Translations under genes and position numbers: made by a program | Shown here: in pieces, positions 2,133 to 32,837 of the stretch | Numbering within the stretch: position 1 is the first letter of the stretch | How the letters are laid out: each line of letters opens with the position of its first letter | Assembly: GCA_017463185.1 (NCBI GenBank) | Contig: JAFTPS010000013.1 | Location: 3,826-67,825 of the forward strand | DNA: 64,000 bases | Origin: Alphaproteobacteria bacterium | GTDB lineage: Bacteria; Pseudomonadota; Alphaproteobacteria; Rs-D84 | Direction: 5' to 3' | Notes under the pieces: model-generated | What the model saw: only the letters and a program-made list of their open reading frames with translations | What the model was told of the DNA's origin: nothing | Databases searched by the model: none

Positions 2133-2495
2133 ATGGCAAAACGTCAATTTAATTCCAATCGTGGGGAACGTGTTGCGGCCAAGGTGCAAACCCTGGTGGC
2201 CGAGATTCTGCGTGATAATTATGGAGATGACCCGGTTTGTGCGGGTGTGTCGCTGGTGGGGGCGGTGGCGCACGGCGGATTACAATTTGTGCGTTTGTTT
2301 TATTATACGCGCAACACAGATATTGCAACGGTGCAGGCACGTTTGGACGAAATTACGCGCAGTGTGCGCTTTGAATTGGCGGCGCGTATGGACCAGAAAT
2401 ATGTCCCAGATATTAAATTTGCATATGATGATACGCTGGAACGTGCGGCACGTATTGACCAATTGCTGAATAATTTGGATGTGGGTAATGATTAG
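2133..2495 (+). CDS. rbfA: Ribosome-binding factor A
   Basis: 120 aa. RVAAKVQTLVAEILRD...VRFELAARM...YVPDIKFAYDDTLERAARIDQLL is the RbfA pattern. Confidence 0.8.
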   Translation: MAKRQFNSNRGERVAAKVQTLVAEILRDNYGDDPVCAGVSLVGAVAHGGLQFVRLFYYTRNTDIATVQARLDEITRSVRFELAARMDQKYVPDIKFAYDDTLERAARIDQLLNNLDVGND

Positions 2496-2901
2496 ACGGG
2501 TATTTAAGTTAGAGCGTGGATTGCTCTGGGATTGTTATTATATTGTGAATACTTTTATGGACGCTGGGTCCGGCGGGGAATGGGTGACATTAAAATATTT
2601 GGTGGATTCTGGGCAATCTGTTATGTTTGTTGATGAACGGGCAAATGGATTTGTAAATGGCTTTTTAATTGGAAATGTAAAATCAGACTGTGCTACGGTT
2701 GATAATTTATTTGTGGATAAAAAGGCGCACAGGGGCGGTATTGGGTCCGCTTTGCTGAAAGCTTATGAGGATTATTGTATTGGTGTTGGGGCGCGGCAAA
2801 TAAAACTAAAATCGCGACCAACCAAGCAGGCGTTGGAATTTTATCAAAAGCACGGATATGTTAAATTAAACTGGGAATACCAAATGCAGAAAAGTTTATA
2901 A
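2479..2901 (+). CDS. GNAT family N-acetyltransferase
   Basis: VDKKAHRGGIGSALLKAYEDYC...ALEFYQKHGY is an acetyl-CoA binding motif A. Overlaps the rbfA stop; an alternative start at 2488 is possible. Confidence 0.7.
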   Translation: MWVMIRRVFKLERGLLWDCYYIVNTFMDAGSGGEWVTLKYLVDSGQSVMFVDERANGFVNGFLIGNVKSDCATVDNLFVDKKAHRGGIGSALLKAYEDYCIGVGARQIKLKSRPTKQALEFYQKHGYVKLNWEYQMQKSL

Positions 2902-2958
2902 AATTTCACCTTGCGAATGCATGAATACTGGTATATCATTGCCGCATAAGGAAACTGA

Positions 2959-2981
2959 GTGGTTAGTGTAAGTGGTTAGTG
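2959..2981. repeat. Left inverted repeat of the four-helix-bundle gene cassette (GTGGTTAGTG-type)
   Basis: gtggttagtgtaagtggttagtg matches the reverse complement of 3339-3361 at 22 of 23 positions. Confidence 0.85.
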
Positions 2982-2997
2982 GCTAGTGGTGGAATAC

Positions 2998-3363
2998 ATG
3001 AAATCAGTCAAGGATTTAAAAGTTTATCAATGTGGATTTAAATTGACGATTGATGTATATAGGGTTACGGCTTGCTTTCCACCGAATGAACAATTTGGGT
3101 TAGTTTCACAGATGCGTAGGGCCGCTGTGTCTGTATGTTCTAATTTAGCAGAAGGGGCGGCGCGTGGAACAACGAAAGAGTATTTGCATTTTGTGTATGT
3201 AGCAAAAGGCTCGGCTGCGGAACTGGAAGCACAAATAGATTTAGCGACTGCATTAGGGTTTGTTGAAAAGGCCAAAGCAGGACAAATACATAAAGATATA
3301 ACGGAAGTTTTAAGAATGTTATCAGGATTGATTCATTCACTAACCACTAACACTAACCACTAA
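2998..3363 (+). CDS. Four-helix-bundle protein (23S rRNA intervening-sequence protein family)
   Basis: LKVYQ..F.L...VY.....[23 protein letters not shown]...GTTKEYLHF....GSAAELEAQ is the family signature. ATG at 2998 (the track start at 2986 is GTG). Confidence 0.8.
3339..3361. repeat. Right inverted repeat of the four-helix-bundle gene cassette
   Basis: cactaaccactaacactaaccac. It encodes the protein C-terminus (LTTNTNH) and pairs with 2959-2981. Confidence 0.85.
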
Positions 3364-3377
3364 CAACTGGTAATAAC

Positions 3378-5171
3378 ATGAAGCAATCTAATATCCGGAA
3401 TTTTTCAATTGTTGCACATATTGACCATGGCAAGTCCACTTTGTCGGACCGTTTAATTGAATTTACGGGCGGTCTGCAATCGCGCGAGATGAAGGCCCAA
3501 GTCTTGGATTCTATGGATATTGAACGTGAACGCGGTATCACGATTAAAGCGCAGACGGTGCGCCTGAATTACAAGGCAAAAAATGGCGAGGTTTATCAAC
3601 TGAATCTGATGGATACGCCGGGGCACGTAGACTTTTCGTATGAGGTGTCACGGTCGTTGGCCGCGTGCGAGGGGGCTTTGGTGTTGGTTGATGCAACCCA
3701 GGGGGTGCAGGCACAGACGTTGGCGAATGCGTATCTGGCGTTGGATAATGATTTGGAAATGTTACCTGTGTTGAACAAGATTGACTTGCCGTCCAGTGAT
3801 GTTGCCGCCACACGTGAACAGATTGCTGATGTTATCGGTCTGGATGCGAACGAGGCGTTAGCCGTATCGGGCAAAACCGGTGATGGTGTACCAGAATTAT
3901 TGGAAGAGATTGTAAATAAATTGCCCGCGCCGCATGGTGATGAAAATGCACCGACACGTGCGCTGTTGGTGGATTCGTGGTATGATTCATATCTGGGGGT
4001 TGTTATTCTGGTACGTGTGGTTGACGGTAATTTATCGCGCGGTCAGAAAATTAAATTTATGGCAACCGGGGCAGAATATGTTGTTGATAAAATTGGCTAT
4101 TTTACACCCAAAATGGTAAATGTTGATGCGTTACATACCGGGGAAATAGGTTTTATTATCACGGGAATGAAAACAATTCACGATTGCAAGGTTGGCGATA
4201 CAATCTGCGATTCGCGGGCGGAAAATATGAAAATGTTGCCCGGTTTTAAGCCGTCTGTGCCGGTGGTGTTTTCGTCATTCTTTCCGGTAGAGGCGGATGA
4301 TTATCCAACGTTCCGTGAAAGTGCGGAAAAGTTAGCTTTGAATGATGCTTCGTTTATGTTTACTGTTGAAAAATCATCTGCGTTGGGGTTTGGTTTGCGA
4401 TGTGGATTTTTGGGATTGTTGCACATGGAAATTATCAGTGAAAGATTGGCGCGTGAATTTAATCTGAATCTGATAAATACCGTGCCCAGCGTGCTGTACA
4501 AGATTCATTTGCGCGATGGCAGTGTCATAGATTTGGAAAATCCCGCTGATATGCCGGACCCAACACGAATCGCATCTATTGAAGAACCGTGGGTGCGTGC
4601 AACGATTATGATGCCCGATAAATATATGGGCGGAATTATGTCGCTGTGCTCGGAACGACGCGGAATCCAGGAAAATATTTCATATGTTGGTAATCGTGCG
4701 GTATTGGTATATCAGTTGCCGTTGGCGGAAATTGTGTTTGATTTTTATGACAGAGTAAAGTCTATTTCGTCAGGCTATGCGTCGTTTGATTATGTTGTAT
4801 TCGGATATCAACCATCCGATTTAGTAAAGGTTTCTATTCTGGTGAACGAGGAAAATGTTGAGCCTTTGTCATTTATGTGTCATCGGTCTTTTGCGGAAAA
4901 GCGTGGGCGTCAGATTGTTGAAAAATTAAAAGATTTAATTCCGCGTCATCAATTCAAAATTCCGTTGCAGGCAGCTATTGGTGGCAAGATTATTGCAAGA
5001 GAGACTATTGCTGCATATCGCAAAGATGTGACGGCAAAATGTTATGGGGGGGATATAACCCGTAAACGTAAATTGTTGGAAAAACAGAAAGAGGGTAAAA
5101 AGCGTATGCGTACCTTTGGTAATGTGGAAATTCCGCAATCGGCGTTTATCAATGCATTAAAGGTATCTTAA
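3378..5171 (+). CDS. lepA: Translation elongation factor 4 (LepA)
   Basis: 597 aa. [34 protein letters not shown] and the LepA-specific C-terminal region. Confidence 0.97.
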
Positions 5172-5612: not shown

Positions 5613-6620
5613 ATGGCGCACCAGTTTTATTTTAATCCGTATATCTTGGATAACTTGCCTGCGCCAAGTTCGGGGTTTGATGTTGTTCAGGATATGTCTG
5701 AGCCGCGGTTGCGTATGTATATTACCAGTCGTGGGGTTAAAACTTTCTTTGTGCGCAAACGTGTTCATGGCAAAGATAAGCGCATTTTAATTGGCAACTA
5801 TCCTGATATGGATATAGAGGATGCGCGCAGTGCGGTTCCCACACTGTTGCAGGATGCGATGAAAAAGCCACCCGTGCGTCGTAAAAAAATTACATTTAAA
5901 AAATTTCTGGATTTATATTTAACGAATCGGGTTCGCCGGGGCGAGGATTCTCATACCAAACTGGTGCGGGCAATCAATCGTCATTTGTCTGATTTGTTTG
6001 AAAAAAATATTTGTGAAATATCAGCAACTGATATTCAAAATGTGATTTCACAAATTGGTGGGCCAGCCATTGCAGCGCGTATGCAGGAATTATTGCAGAG
6101 TATTTTTAACTATGCGATAGAAACTGGGTATGTGAAAAAAAATCCAACCGCCAATATTCAAAAGGTTCCACAAAATCGCCGTGTGCGTCCATTAAATCGT
6201 GCGGGCTTGCATCGCTTGATTGCAGCCATAGACCAATATCCAGACCAGACATTGCGGGCGGCATTCTTTATGTTGATTTATGGTTTTGTGCCGCGCTCAA
6301 AAGTTTTTTCTATGGCGTGGGAAGATTTAGATTTTAATCACGATATGTGGTTGGGGCGACCTTTGTCGGACCGTGCCATTGTTTTGTTGCAGGATTTACC
6401 CCAGGATGGACATTGGGTTTTCCCGGGACGGGGCGGTATGCATTTGATGGACCCGCGTACAGCCTGGCGACGCGTTGCGGTGGCGGCTGGGATTCCGGGA
6501 TTGACAATGGATGATGTGTATAAATTCCTGATGCGTCAGTTGGTTTGGGCGTCCGACCGCGAGGATTTTCGTGCAAATATAAATTCATTGTTGGATGATA
6601 TATTTTCCCAAAACATATAA
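5613..6620 (+). CDS. Tyrosine-recombinase (phage integrase)-like protein, catalytic motifs degenerate
   Basis: The N-terminus (LRMYITSRGVKTFFVRKRVHGKDKRILIGNYPDMDIEDARS) looks like a P4-type integrase arm-binding domain. The C-terminal domain keeps box I (YGFVPRSKVFSMAWEDLDF) but has LTMDDVYKFL where HxLR is expected, and no terminal Tyr motif. Confidence 0.6.
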   Translation: MAHQFYFNPYILDNLPAPSSGFDVVQDMSEPRLRMYITSRGVKTFFVRKRVHGKDKRILIGNYPDMDIEDARSAVPTLLQDAMKKPPVRRKKITFKKFLDLYLTNRVRRGEDSHTKLVRAINRHLSDLFEKNICEISATDIQNVISQIGGPAIAARMQELLQSIFNYAIETGYVKKNPTANIQKVPQNRRVRPLNRAGLHRLIAAIDQYPDQTLRAAFFMLIYGFVPRSKVFSMAWEDLDFNHDMWLGRPLSDRAIVLLQDLPQDGHWVFPGRGGMHLMDPRTAWRRVAVAAGIPGLTMDDVYKFLMRQLVWASDREDFRANINSLLDDIFSQNI

Positions 6621-9643: not shown

Positions 9644-9739
9644 ATGAGAATTACATATGAACATAAAAAGTGTATAGTTTATTATGTTGCCGTCGTTGCA
9701 ATATTGCTGTGCGGCGTTATGATTGGAATAGGGTATTAA
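9644..9739 (+). CDS. 31-aa single-TM mini-protein (not in ORF track)
   Basis: Strong SD aaagggggg 6 nt before the ATG at 9644. MRITYEHKKCIVYYVAVVAILLCGVMIGIGY, stop at 9737-9739, terminator immediately after. Confidence 0.4.
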   Translation: MRITYEHKKCIVYYVAVVAILLCGVMIGIGY

Positions 9740-9767
9740 AAATCCCGCCATTGGCGGGATTTTTTTC
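9738..9767 (+). terminator. Rho-independent terminator
   Basis: aaaaATCCCGCCattGGCGGGATttttttt. The hairpin is identical to the one at 32811-32837. Confidence 0.85.
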
Positions 9768-9768
9768 A

Positions 9769-9835
9769 GTGGTTAGTGTAAGTGGTTAGTGAATAGTGGC
9801 GGAATACATAAAAAGTTATTAGTGTTTTGTTATTA
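9769..9835 (+). repeat. Solo remnant of the four-helix-bundle cassette 5' end
   Basis: agtggttagtgtaagtggttagtgaatagtggcggaatacataaaaag aligns with 2958-3004, but ATG has become ATA and the ORF is gone. Confidence 0.75.
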
Positions 9836-9892
9836 TAATGTGTGATACGACCATCAACACTGGCATAAAATTAAAATCGCCACAGGGGCGAT
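9828..9892. repeat. Direct repeat copy 1 (about 65 bp, includes a terminator hairpin)
   Basis: The 49-bp core gatacgaccatcaacactggcataaaattaaaatcgccacaggggcgat is identical to 10001-10049. Flanks are partly conserved. Confidence 0.9.
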
Positions 9893-9990: not shown

Positions 9991-10049
9991 CATAATGTAT
10001 GATACGACCATCAACACTGGCATAAAATTAAAATCGCCACAGGGGCGAT
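9984..10049. repeat. Direct repeat copy 2
   Basis: See 9828-9892. This copy lies directly downstream of tRNA-Pro on the minus strand. Confidence 0.9.
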
Positions 10050-10059
10050 TTGAATTTTA

Positions 10060-10136
<77 letters not shown>

Positions 10137-10266: not shown

Positions 10267-11946
10267 ATGTTTGCATTACGTTTTTTACAAAAAAATAAAT
10301 TTGATAATTATGATGATTATCGTAAAAACGCAACGCCAACTGTTCCTGATAACTTTAACTTTGCGTATGATGTTATTGACGTTATGGCAGACGAGACGCC
10401 AGACAAAGTTGCATTGTTATGGGTCAACGACAGTGGTGAAAAGAAATCAATCACATTTAAGGCTTTGTCACGAATGTCAAATGCTGTGGCGAATTTTTTA
10501 AGTGCGCGTGGTTTGAAAAAGGGTGACACGGTTTTATTATTTTTGCGTCGTCGGTGGGAATATTGGGTTTTGATGATGGCGATGCATAAATTGGGGGTAA
10601 TTCCAATTCCGTCAACCAATCAATTAAAGGCCGAGGATATTGAATATCGTATTGATACCGCGGGTGCACGTGCAATTATTGCGTTTGATGATGGTATGGT
10701 TGTCGGAGAAATCAAATCTGCCATTGGGGACCGTGATGTCCAGCTGATTGACTGTGCCGAGATTTCAGACGCAGCCGAAAATGGAAATCCGAAATTGGAA
10801 CGCGTGCCGAATGAAACATTGGATACTATGGTGATTTATTTCACCAGTGGCACAACCGATTTACCAAAAATGGTGGCGCATAATTTTGCATATCCATTGG
10901 GACATATCAATACGGCTGTGTTCTGGCAAAGATTGACGGATGATGATATTCACTTTACATTGTCTGAGTCAGGTTGGGCAAAATGTTCGTGGGGTAAAAT
11001 GTATGGCCAGTGGTTGGCAGGTGCGACTGTGTTTGTGTTTGATTTCAGTCGTGTGTTTACTGCGCACGATTTGTTGACCGCAATTGCAGAAAATCGTGTG
11101 ACGTCGTTCTGTGCGCCGCCGACCGCGTATAAAATGATTATTCATGCGGATATGAGTAAATATGACCTGTCGTCGTTAAAGAAAGCCGATATTGCGGGTG
11201 AAGCCCTGAATCCAGAAGTTTATGAACGTTTCCTGGAAAAGACCGGTATCAAGATGCGCGAAGGTTTTGGTCAGACAGAAACCTGTGTAATGTTGTTTAA
11301 CAATGAATGGATTGAACCAAAACCAGGGTCTATGGGTATGCCTGCGGCCGGTTGGGATGTTCAATTATTGGATGAACGTGGTCGTCCGGTTGCTGATGGT
11401 ACGGTGGGTGAAATCTGTGTTTGCCTGAAAGATTCACGTCCGATCGGATTGTTCCAGGGGTATCACAAAAATGAAAAACTGACCGCGGCGGCATATCGCG
11501 ATGGTTATTATCATACGGGTGATGTCGCATACCGTGATGCGGATGGGTATTTCTGGTTCGTGGGGCGCAATGATGATTTGATTAAAAGTTGTGGATATCG
11601 TATCAGTCCGTTTGAGGTGGAAAGTGTTCTGTTGGAACATCCCGCCGTCCGCGAGGTTGCCGTCACCGGTGTTCCCGACGCGGCCCGTGGTCAGGCGGTT
11701 AAAGCAACCATTGTTTTGAATAAATATTTTCAGCCGACTGATGTTGTAATGCGTCAATTACAGGACCATGTAAAATCCCGCACGGCGCATTATAAATGTC
11801 CGCGTGTGATAGAATTTGTGGACAGCCTGCCGATGACTATCAGTGGGAAAATTCGTCGTGCGTTGATTCGCACCCTGGACAGTGCCAAGGAAACAATCGT
11901 TGACCCAGTTAAAAATACGATTGGCCTGGGCAAGAAAGAGGAATAA
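10267..11946 (+). CDS. AMP-forming acyl-CoA synthetase (medium-chain type)
   Basis: YFTSGTTDLPKMVAH (AMP-binding), GYYHTGDVAYRDADGYFWFVGRNDDLIK, SGKIRR. ATG at 10267 after aaaaagga. Confidence 0.85.
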   Translation: MFALRFLQKNKFDNYDDYRKNATPTVPDNFNFAYDVIDVMADETPDKVALLWVNDSGEKKSITFKALSRMSNAVANFLSARGLKKGDTVLLFLRRRWEYWVLMMAMHKLGVIPIPSTNQLKAEDIEYRIDTAGARAIIAFDDGMVVGEIKSAIGDRDVQLIDCAEISDAAENGNPKLERVPNETLDTMVIYFTSGTTDLPKMVAHNFAYPLGHINTAVFWQRLTDDDIHFTLSESGWAKCSWGKMYGQWLAGATVFVFDFSRVFTAHDLLTAIAENRVTSFCAPPTAYKMIIHADMSKYDLSSLKKADIAGEALNPEVYERFLEKTGIKMREGFGQTETCVMLFNNEWIEPKPGSMGMPAAGWDVQLLDERGRPVADGTVGEICVCLKDSRPIGLFQGYHKNEKLTAAAYRDGYYHTGDVAYRDADGYFWFVGRNDDLIKSCGYRISPFEVESVLLEHPAVREVAVTGVPDAARGQAVKATIVLNKYFQPTDVVMRQLQDHVKSRTAHYKCPRVIEFVDSLPMTISGKIRRALIRTLDSAKETIVDPVKNTIGLGKKEE

Positions 11947-11969
11947 AATCCCCCATTTGGGGGATTTTT
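11945..11969 (+). terminator. Rho-independent terminator
   Basis: ATCCCCCatttGGGGGAT followed by T5. Confidence 0.85.
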
Positions 11970-12030
11970 ACTAGTGAATGCTGAACAGTGAAAATGGAAT
12001 TTATAAAATATCGTCATATCAGCGCGGGCC

Positions 12031-12056
12031 TCTATCCACTAACGACTCGCCACTAA
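12031..12056. repeat. Degenerate remnant resembling the cassette right IR (CCACTAAC-type)
   Basis: tctatccactaacgactcgccactaat, shortly after a terminator. Confidence 0.4.
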
Positions 12057-32546: not shown

Positions 32547-32549
32547 TAA

Positions 32550-32578
32550 AAATCCCGCCAACGGCGGGATTTTTTTTA
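32550..32578 (+). terminator. Strong rho-independent terminator directly after rpsK
   Basis: aaaaATCCCGCCaacGGCGGGATtttttttt. Confidence 0.9.
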
Positions 32579-32597: not shown

Positions 32598-32706
32598 TAT
32601 TCTTTTTTGTCATTGCGAGCGAACGCGCCTGCCATACGAAGCCTTGGCGTAGTGTGGTGGCAAACCAGTAAATTAGTGTAAGTTGTTAGTGGATAGTGTT
32701 GAAATT
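32598..32706 (+). repeat. Degenerate remnant of the four-helix-bundle cassette 5' region
   Basis: gtcattgcgagcgaa...taaattagtgtaagttgttagtggatagtgttgaaat is similar to 2936-2996. No ORF. Confidence 0.5.
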
Positions 32707-32810: not shown

Positions 32811-32837
32811 GAAAATCCCGCCATTGGCGGGATTTTT
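32811..32837 (-). terminator. Terminator of the Cys-rich operon (hairpin identical to 9738-9767)
   Basis: ATCCCGCCattGGCGGGAT just beyond the stop at 32840, with A and T runs on both sides. Confidence 0.75.

Follow-up and report, generated by a model that had tools for sequence, protein, structure and literature searches.

Genes of the PF05635/TIGR02436 family, which encode four-helix-bundle proteins, form to our knowledge one of the commonest uncharacterised families of small bacterial proteins. Some of them lie inside ribosomal RNA genes, within intervening sequences (IVSs). When such insertions carry an open reading frame (ORF) they have been called 'selfish' elements of obscure origin since the 1990s. 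Elsewhere, certain bacterial genomes are strewn with tandem arrays of heptamers—the short tandemly repeated repetitive (STRR) sequences, GGGAATC and others—and we know of no function or partner protein assigned to these. The protein family, its occurrence in rRNA IVSs and outside them, the heptamers of the Coxiella IVS, and the dispersed repeats of Xanthomonas, Nostoc, Geobacter and Beggiatoaceae are all already known. Here we describe a PF05635 gene that sits in front of lepA between two inverted heptamer arrays, in a 64,000-nucleotide stretch ('the window', whose coordinates we use below) of an alphaproteobacterial genome of the Rs-D84 lineage (GenBank assembly GCA_017463185.1, contig JAFTPS010000013.1, positions 3,826 to 67,825, forward strand). 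This locus is an IVS-type cassette in an mRNA leader, rather than in rRNA. Its hairpin layout is not peculiar to it: it is the standard architecture of PF05635 genes, inside rRNA or out.

In the Coxiella IVS, tandem GACAGAT heptamers precede the start of the S23p gene, a 28-bp terminal stem closes the element, and excision by RNase III, which cuts mid-stem, has been demonstrated; the S23p ORF itself is reported to be decaying and probably untranslated (PMC4990558). The dispersed heptamers of cyanobacteria (STRR), Xanthomonas (GGGAATC) and Nostoc (GGGGAYT) share tandem 7-nt units that are mostly intergenic and often convergent (PMC4692102). Rehm et al. counted 186 dispersed GGGAATC arrays in Xanthomonas, with 70 convergent pairs, and left the PF05635 gene unmentioned (PMC4692102); the repeat was catalogued genome-wide in that 2015 paper as a G-quadruplex-forming sequence. 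Geobacter metallireducens has paired hepta- and octanucleotide sites, for which an 'unidentified global regulator' has been postulated (PMC2700814), and Beggiatoaceae have TAACTGA repeats (PMC4679880). Term searches of these three papers found no mention of PF05635 genes. A wider literature search, which had most subscription journals outside its scope, returned no link between PF05635/S23p genes and heptamer repeats beyond the Coxiella IVS, and no statement equating the arms of a PF05635 gene with the dispersed heptamers of its genome.

The cassette in front of lepA

Region 2911–3368 is a complete hairpin-enclosed cassette: a promoter, then a 5' array, then a PF05635 gene, and last a 3' array with the reverse-complement sequence of the 5' one (Table 1). 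A first-pass annotation, made from the letters of the window alone, had noticed an inverted repeat here, 2959–2981 pairing with 3339–3361 at 22 of 23 positions. Our repeat search recovered the same repeat as 24-nt arms, 2958–2981 and 3338–3361, with 23 of the 24 positions paired (96%) and 356 nt between them. A weaker extension widens the arms to 38 nt (2958–2995 and 3331–3368) at 71% complementarity. Tandem Repeats Finder resolves the left arm into AGTGGTT/AGTGTA units and the right arm into CACTAAC units, with periods of 7 and 13, period 7 applying at 2958–2990 and 3338–3368. Scored as an ungapped inverted repeat, the arms reach 21; the maximum among 624 random positions of the same geometry is 13. 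Folding had been proposed in the annotation as a check, and the minimum-free-energy fold of 2940–3380 does close the long-range stem (z = -3.66), with none of 100 shuffles equally stable.

The enclosed gene had been called a four-helix-bundle gene of the 23S-IVS type, and profile searches agree. Its product matches PF05635 (23S_rRNA_IVP) with E 2.7e-35 and 121.2 bits, against a cut-off of 33.8, and has no other Pfam match; TIGR02436, the four helix bundle protein model, scores 112.6 bits against a cut-off of 24. Of the relatives with a solved structure, XCC0516 of Xanthomonas campestris (PDB 2GSC, E 1.7e-21) is the closest, and is reported to be a homopentamer. The Pfam domain stops at residue 110 of 121. 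Read directly, the last seven codons, CTA ACC ACT AAC ACT AAC CAC, lie in the 3' arm and encode the C-terminus LTTNTNH, as the annotation had it, before TAA at 3361–3363; this tail is kept in homologs down to ~57% identity.

At the other end of the gene, the start codon is most likely ATG 2998, not GTG 2986, because all orthologs begin MKSVK. The database homologs P0002, P0012, P0017, P0022 and P0024 carry N-terminal extensions (MVSGGIMKS..., MVSGAAQMKS...) that are translated 5' arm, so the start codons of those entries are probably mis-called. The Shine-Dalgarno-like site falls in the weaker extension of the 5' arm, and GGTGGAAT is kept in the closest orthologs. The promoter-like site lies directly outside that arm, and the predicted transcript would start ~10 nt before it.

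Rfam finds no rRNA genes in the whole 64-kb window and Pfam confirms the neighbours, so the placement first given to the gene, outside rRNA and between a GNAT gene and lepA, stands. The cassette matches no Rfam family, even at E = 1, and none of the PADLOC defence-system models; tblastn finds no second PF05635 gene in the window.

Table 1. Coordinates of the cassette, its neighbours and the solo heptamer arrays in the window
Feature	Position	Strand	Remarks
rbfA	2133–2495		upstream of GNAT gene
GNAT gene	2479–2901		upstream of cassette; overlaps end of rbfA
Sigma-70-type promoter-like site	2911–2939	+	TTGCGA-17-TATCAT; from promoter scan, function putative
5' arm	2958–2995	+	AGTGGTT/AGTGTA tandem array, G-rich, C-poor; core 2958–2981 pairs with 3338–3361
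Shine-Dalgarno-like site	2988–2993	+	GGTGGA, 5–10 nt before ATG; read from sequence, role putative
Four-helix-bundle gene	2998–3363	+	121 aa (PF05635/TIGR02436); last 7 codons and stop in 3' arm
3' arm	3331–3368	+	CACTAAC/CACTAA tandem array, reverse complement of 5' arm; core 3338–3361
lepA	3378–5171	+	downstream cistron; Pfam GTP_EFTU and LepA_C; ATG 14 nt past four-helix-bundle stop
Solo copy of 5' arm, no gene	9768–9809	+	42 nt, 93% identical to 2958–2999
Degenerate array, opposite orientation	12030–12055	-	TAGTGGCGAGTCGTTAGTGGATAGAG on minus strand
Degenerate solo array	32673–32700	+	TTAGTGTAAGTTGTTAGTGGATAGTGTT

Comparison with rRNA intervening sequences

The geometry of the locus had been likened to that of ORF-bearing 23S rRNA IVSs, and a direct comparison can be made with one of these. 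On plasmid AZO_p2 of Azospirillum lipoferum 4B (L111 among our loci), Rfam places a PF05635 ORF, which has no annotated CDS, inside a large-subunit rRNA gene, ~1,150 nt from its start. The arms of this IVS, at 3439–3474 and 3872–3907, are 36 nt long and 86% complementary, consist of CAGAGGA/CGGATGA units, and enclose a loop of 397 nt. It and the window cassette thus both have arms built of ~7-nt units, both have the G-rich arm upstream, and both have loops of similar size (397 against 356 nt). The long terminal stem, the PF05635 ORF in the loop and the tandem heptamers on the 5' side are all found in the window cassette. What it lacks is the insertion into the helix 9, 25 or 45 region of 23S rRNA: the IVSs of Coxiella, Leptospira and Azospirillum reside in 23S rRNA, whereas the window copy heads a lepA transcript as its first cistron. 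The ORF it carries differs from the reportedly decaying S23p ORF of Coxiella, too, in being intact and under purifying selection, and RNase III excision, a demonstrated fact for the Coxiella element, would extend to the window cassette by analogy. Taken with the description of the Coxiella IVS, the Azospirillum comparison makes the IVS analogy correct at the level of anatomy. Judged by that anatomy, rRNA IVSs with a PF05635 ORF and the window cassette are to all appearances the same kind of object, in different hosts.

Inheritance at the rbfA–lepA position

The closest genome records are metagenome-assembled genomes (MAGs) named Candidatus Enterousia, together with uncultured gut Alphaproteobacteria. 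The order rbfA–cassette–lepA recurs in all 13 orthologous loci, from other gut alphaproteobacteria, with LepA 91–97% and the four-helix-bundle protein 63–84% identical to those of the window, and with lepA starting 6–28 nt beyond the four-helix-bundle stop in every one. The promoter's -35/-10 pair or a close variant of it, along with a conserved TGCCGCA stretch, is present in 11 of the 13; it is missing in L027 and L028, where rbfA abuts the arm. Between cassette and lepA, no terminator-like site occurs at 3338–3400 and the stem is not followed by a U-run. Purifying selection acts on the protein (median dN/dS 0.13 over 62 ortholog pairs). Between the window and its relatives dS runs from 0.7 to above 1.5, neutral sites being near saturation, and the non-coding 5' arm is present upstream of all orthologs nonetheless. 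On fixed synteny, conserved promoter, missing terminator, purifying selection and retained 5' arm, we take the window copy to be an old, vertically inherited first cistron of the lepA transcript, predicted to be expressed, and not a recent insertion.

A recently mobile element is ruled out for the window copy by this synteny, and no target-site duplication is conserved. Nor does the cassette resemble a miniature inverted-repeat transposable element or an insertion sequence: it has no transposase domain, and the orthologs do not keep the AACTG that stands on either side of it in the window. The 'self-contained cassette' of the first-pass annotation therefore survives in one sense and not in another. 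It is an architectural unit found throughout the family, but at this fixed position, in 13 orthologous loci, it gives no sign of recent mobility.

The position of the cassette, between a conserved promoter and lepA, which starts 6–28 nt past the stop codon in every ortholog, is also what would be expected if the stem were a leader or attenuator controlling the transcription or translation of lepA, and the small ORF were incidental. An intrinsic terminator or attenuator consists of a short GC-rich hairpin and a U-run; here the loop is 356 nt, and the 3' arm has no terminator-like site and no U-run behind it. The ORF, moreover, is under purifying selection, and the same gene-plus-arms unit turns up at accB–accC, at cas6–cas4, at nrdA–nrdB (on the opposite strand) and inside 23S rRNA. 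We consider this explanation very unlikely.

Two observations concern the surroundings of the cassette. Of 14 loci compared, only two, the window and L021, have a GNAT gene at this position, and its two copies share just 36% identity, against 97% for LepA. An integrase-like ORF (5613–6620) lies between lepA and acpP–fabF, a housekeeping neighbourhood, and is syntenic in all relatives examined; its orthologs match Arm-DNA-bind_3 and Phage_int_M, in some cases weakly.

The architecture across the PF05635 family

To place the locus in its family we fetched 80 PF05635 loci, from Alphaproteobacteria, Chitinophagaceae and other Bacteroidota, Burkholderiales, Geobacteraceae, Saccharibacteria and others, and in each compared the 150 nt preceding the start codon with the region around the stop, scoring the best ungapped inverted repeat that the two formed. 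A score of at least 12 was reached by 64% of PF05635 loci (n = 78), by 0.8% of random positions of the same geometry in the same loci (n = 624, none of them scoring 14 or more), and by 1.3% of the boundaries of ORFs of at least 250 aa, which served as real control genes (n = 552). Between PF05635 loci and random positions the difference is highly significant (Mann-Whitney p = 5e-30). The period of the arms is mostly 7, and also 13 and 14. In 50 loci, the arms are typically ~25 nt long, the left arm ends ~25 nt before the ATG, and the loop is ~398 nt. The right arm begins at about the stop codon: in 23 of the 50 it overlaps the ORF, and in 27 it lies wholly downstream. This disposes of the C-terminal tail as a functional peptide, which we had entertained as a candidate.

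The sequence of the units varies by lineage (ATTAGTC, GTCGTTR, TCGGGAT, AGGCRCG, GGCAATR, GGCAGAC, GGAGAGT and others), yet within a locus the two arms correspond. With the ortholog clade left out, 59% of same-locus pairs of left and right arms match with a score of at least 12, against 4.4% of cross-locus pairs. L022 and L043, paralogs from a single MAG, have different arms. Polarity, too, is strict. In 59 of 60 distinct loci the arm that precedes the gene is, on the coding strand, rich in G and poor in C (708 G against 137 C).

Chance could be invoked for all of this. A slippage-prone generic repeat might happen to border the gene at both ends, or the 3' arm might persist for the sake of a C-terminal tail that the protein needs; the repeat is indeed dispersed in the lineage, and the LTTNTNH tail is conserved as far as noted above. 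But coincidence does not produce an association of 64% against ~1% in controls, nor arms matched within loci, and a needed tail would not lie past the stop codon in more than half of the loci or beyond the end of the Pfam domain. It would not retain a non-coding 5' arm, either, while synonymous sites saturate. We find coincidence scarcely credible. The concern of the first-pass annotation, that the arms might prove to be a generic repeat, is borne out insofar as the heptamer is also dispersed without a gene in this lineage; the inverted-array geometry, however, is tied to PF05635 across bacteria.

The same layout extends well beyond proteobacterial chromosomes. It is seen in most of 20 viral contigs and on cyanobacterial plasmids, where a Nostoc copy has eight GGGAGTA units paired with five TCCCTAC units, and Anabaena sp. 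90 pANA02 (L103) has GGTGACA paired with TGTCACC, in a cassette between cas6 and cas4. In Xanthomonas (L106–L110, 10001–10330), the XCC0516-type gene lies between accB and accC with inverted GGGAATC-type arrays, the repeat catalogued by Rehm et al., on both sides; the ortholog group of the solved protein is thus, like the window gene, enclosed by inverted heptamer arrays within a housekeeping operon, although the heptamer is GGGAATC there and AGTGGTT here.

Some of the settings are curious. In two cyanobacteria, that of L103 and Pseudanabaena galeata pPg_01 (L104), the cassette lies in a type I-D CRISPR-Cas locus, with cas6 on one side and cas4 on the other. In Nostoc edaphicum pNe_5 (L100) and Calothrix sp. 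PCC 7716 (L101), the cassette is antisense to both neighbours in an apparent operon, between two ribonucleotide reductase subunit genes (nrdA–nrdB) in the former and two toxin-secretion genes in the latter. One control gene out of 552, a 348-aa ORF of a Chitinophagales MAG (L088, 11690–12736), is enclosed by inverted TTTTTAC-type arrays with a score of 27; enclosure by inverted heptamer arrays is therefore not absolutely exclusive to PF05635.

Dispersed arrays of the same heptamer

The arms of the window cassette belong to the class of dispersed tandem heptamers, with the difference that, unlike the arrays in the published accounts, they enclose a gene. AGTGGTTAGTG, with one mismatch allowed, has 11 matches in the window where 0.69 would be expected, and these fall at four sites in the 64 kb, the cassette included. 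Tandem 6–7-nt units at several intergenic sites, the hallmark of STRR-like repeats, are accordingly found here. The solo copy at 9768 spans a former start codon, ATG having become ATA, and comes directly after a terminator-like hairpin. Relatives have further arrays without a gene, both solos and 'empty' inverted pairs, most of them directly beside rho-independent terminators; L026 has five solos and L025 an empty pair.

Xanthomonas, used to test whether the arms of a PF05635 gene match the heptamer dispersed in its genome, shows such a match, further GGGAATC arrays occurring inside the same 20 kb as the accB–accC cassette. N. edaphicum pNe_5 behaves similarly: its cassette has AGGGAGT arms, and within 50 kb there are also a solo array and an empty pair. 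In at least three unrelated lineages, then—the window clade, Xanthomonas and Nostoc—the genome carries the gene's flanking heptamer at dispersed sites as well. Cognate 16-mers lie outside the cassette in 15 of 43 loci, against ~0.01 per locus expected by our own arithmetic, and in the loci examined none of the extra solo arrays flanks another PF05635 gene.

This pattern is what would be left by a four-helix-bundle protein that acts in trans, recognising cognate heptamer arrays as DNA or as RNA. The arrays around the gene would be its 'home' or operator copies, the solos and empty pairs would be other targets or copies that it helped to spread, and the long hairpin would be a by-product of inverted sites. 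We hold this to be possible, though on balance unlikely. Dispersal in three lineages, the excess of cognate 16-mers and the lack of a second PF05635 gene beside the extra arrays all speak for it, as do the differently armed paralogs of a single MAG and the global regulator postulated for the paired arrays of Geobacter (PMC2700814). The layout is that of REPIN–RAYT systems, a single vertically inherited gene between inverted copies of a short repeat dispersed in the genome. RAYTs are HUH (Y1-type) transposases, and the repetitive extragenic palindromes (REPs) with which they are associated are single palindromic units. The window protein is not an HUH transposase but a small bundle of helices without a known catalytic site, and its repeats are tandem heptamer arrays.

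Relationship to Avd proteins points the same way. Avd, the accessory protein of diversity-generating retroelements, binds both nucleic acid and a polymerase, and is homologous to the window protein in fold and family (NF033474, E 2.9e-5; PHROG 3206, E 3.8e-9), a homology that we computed, although at 24.3 bits the window protein falls below the NF033474 equivalog cut-off of 80. No reverse transcriptase is encoded by the called neighbours in the window or in the orthologous loci; the neighbours are rbfA, the GNAT gene and lepA, with no template/variable repeat pair adjoining. Against a trans-acting role stand the protein's want of a known catalytic motif and the state of most Bacteroidota and Burkholderiales loci, in which no cognate array occurs within 10 kb on either side of the gene.

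Some of these arrays have neighbours of their own. A palindrome that resembles a terminator, AATCCCGCCAnnGGCGGGATTTTT, occurs at 9738–9764, 32548–32574 and 32811–32837, with none expected by chance, and two of the three copies lie no more than ~110 nt away from a heptamer array. Another conserved element, GCGGAATCCCACTGCGCCAAGGCTTCGTGGGACAAG, follows solo arrays in three copies in L023 (375–440, 719–800 and 1007–1080), and its reverse complement, at 32620–32672 of the window, adjoins the degenerate array at 32673. Its presence beside solo arrays suggests that, in this lineage, the heptamer arrays are parts of larger intergenic repeat elements. Arrays also border an AMP-binding (acyl-CoA synthetase-like) gene that comes after fabF (~10300–11950), at 9768 and 12030 in the window and at 6941 in L011; this gene is on the plus strand in the window and L001, and inverted in L010 and L011. 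Close by, a 58-nt direct repeat (9835–9892 and 9992–10049, 98% identical, 157 nt apart) lies immediately upstream of tRNA-Pro(cgg) (10060–10136, minus strand), and looks like a duplicated attachment site or tRNA-flank sequence.

Pairing in RNA or in DNA

What might the arms do? We give roughly even chances to the idea that they pair in the mRNA, and that the stem so formed is processed by RNase III in the manner of the ORF-bearing rRNA IVSs. The two arrays would form a duplex of ~24 bp, or of up to 38 bp with mismatches, and RNase III would, if the IVS precedent holds, cut it. A cut would part the four-helix-bundle message from that of lepA and leave the host operon intact. The four-helix-bundle ORF would lose its 5' leader as well as the end that bears its stop codon, so that only transcripts escaping the cut could yield protein. 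A ribosome translating the last codons, which lie in the 3' arm, should melt the stem, so that translation and processing would compete; and because tandem arms can pair in several registers, the stem should survive slippage. Since the heptamer is dispersed elsewhere in the lineage, the protein may act on those arrays as well, although this is speculative. No RNase III signature was found in the 64-kb window, a result that carries no weight either way.

A role at the level of the transcript is backed by the promoter's position outside the arm, by the strict coding-strand polarity of the arms, and by the stem that RNAalifold predicts. The first two of these tell against a protein that acts in trans on scattered sites. 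In an alignment of 12 orthologs, RNAalifold predicts the long-range stem with 97.3% of 264 cells paired. Six of its pairs vary. On the sense strand every one of the six varies to G.U, in 16 cells against one of C.A type, and those G.U cells would be mismatches on the opposite strand. The sense arm duplex is the more stable in 10 of 11 members of the ortholog clade, which are not independent loci. Energies for duplexes of the whole flanks were discarded because they are dominated by noise, the controls also being very stable.

Several results weigh against processing of an RNA stem as the general explanation. Among the 12 aligned orthologs the stem changes on one side only, to G.U, and no compensatory double change is seen. 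Among the 60 distinct loci of the family, G.U mismatches in the arms do not significantly outnumber A.C mismatches (80 against 65, p = 0.24), and the energy of the arm duplex favours the sense strand in 31 loci and the antisense strand in 29. With RNA-specific signals this weak across the family, a role at the DNA level fits equally well, and the lack of preference for the sense strand is one more point in favour of a trans-acting protein. About a third of PF05635 loci have no clear inverted repeat by the ungapped score, and the Pseudanabaena copy (L104) has direct heptamers, with ~16 AAAAGCT units upstream and ~10 AAAAGCC units downstream. A processing stem, furthermore, leaves the solo arrays beside terminators unexplained. 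Pairing at the RNA level is, in our judgement, likely at the window locus, and unproven for the PF05635 family in general. Recognition by a trans-acting protein and processing by RNase III are compatible readings, not exclusive ones.

What the association means

It is tempting to go one step further, and to regard PF05635 genes and tandem-heptamer arrays as one widespread system of two parts, in which the protein is the missing trans factor that binds the arrays, regulates through them or helps to propagate them. We offer this tentatively, as a minority prospect. Were it true, ORF-bearing rRNA IVSs would be copies of the system that landed in rRNA and survived there because their arms form an RNase III stem. 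The cognate heptamer of each gene would then be the 'orphan' repeat that is dispersed through its genome, whether of the cyanobacterial STRR type, the GGGAATC of Xanthomonas, the sites of Geobacter, or the AGTGGTT of the lineage described here.

The enclosure of PF05635 genes by inverted arrays of a lineage-specific heptamer, which in at least three lineages is also the dispersed repeat, by itself joins three puzzles: the PF05635 family, the ORF-bearing rRNA IVSs and the dispersed heptamers. Certain artefacts of annotation find an explanation, too, C-terminal tails such as LTTNTNH and TNTSTNTSTNH, and false N-terminal extensions such as MVSGGI..., being translated arms. And in the gut alphaproteobacterial lineage to which the window belongs, expression of lepA appears to be coupled to a four-helix-bundle cassette.

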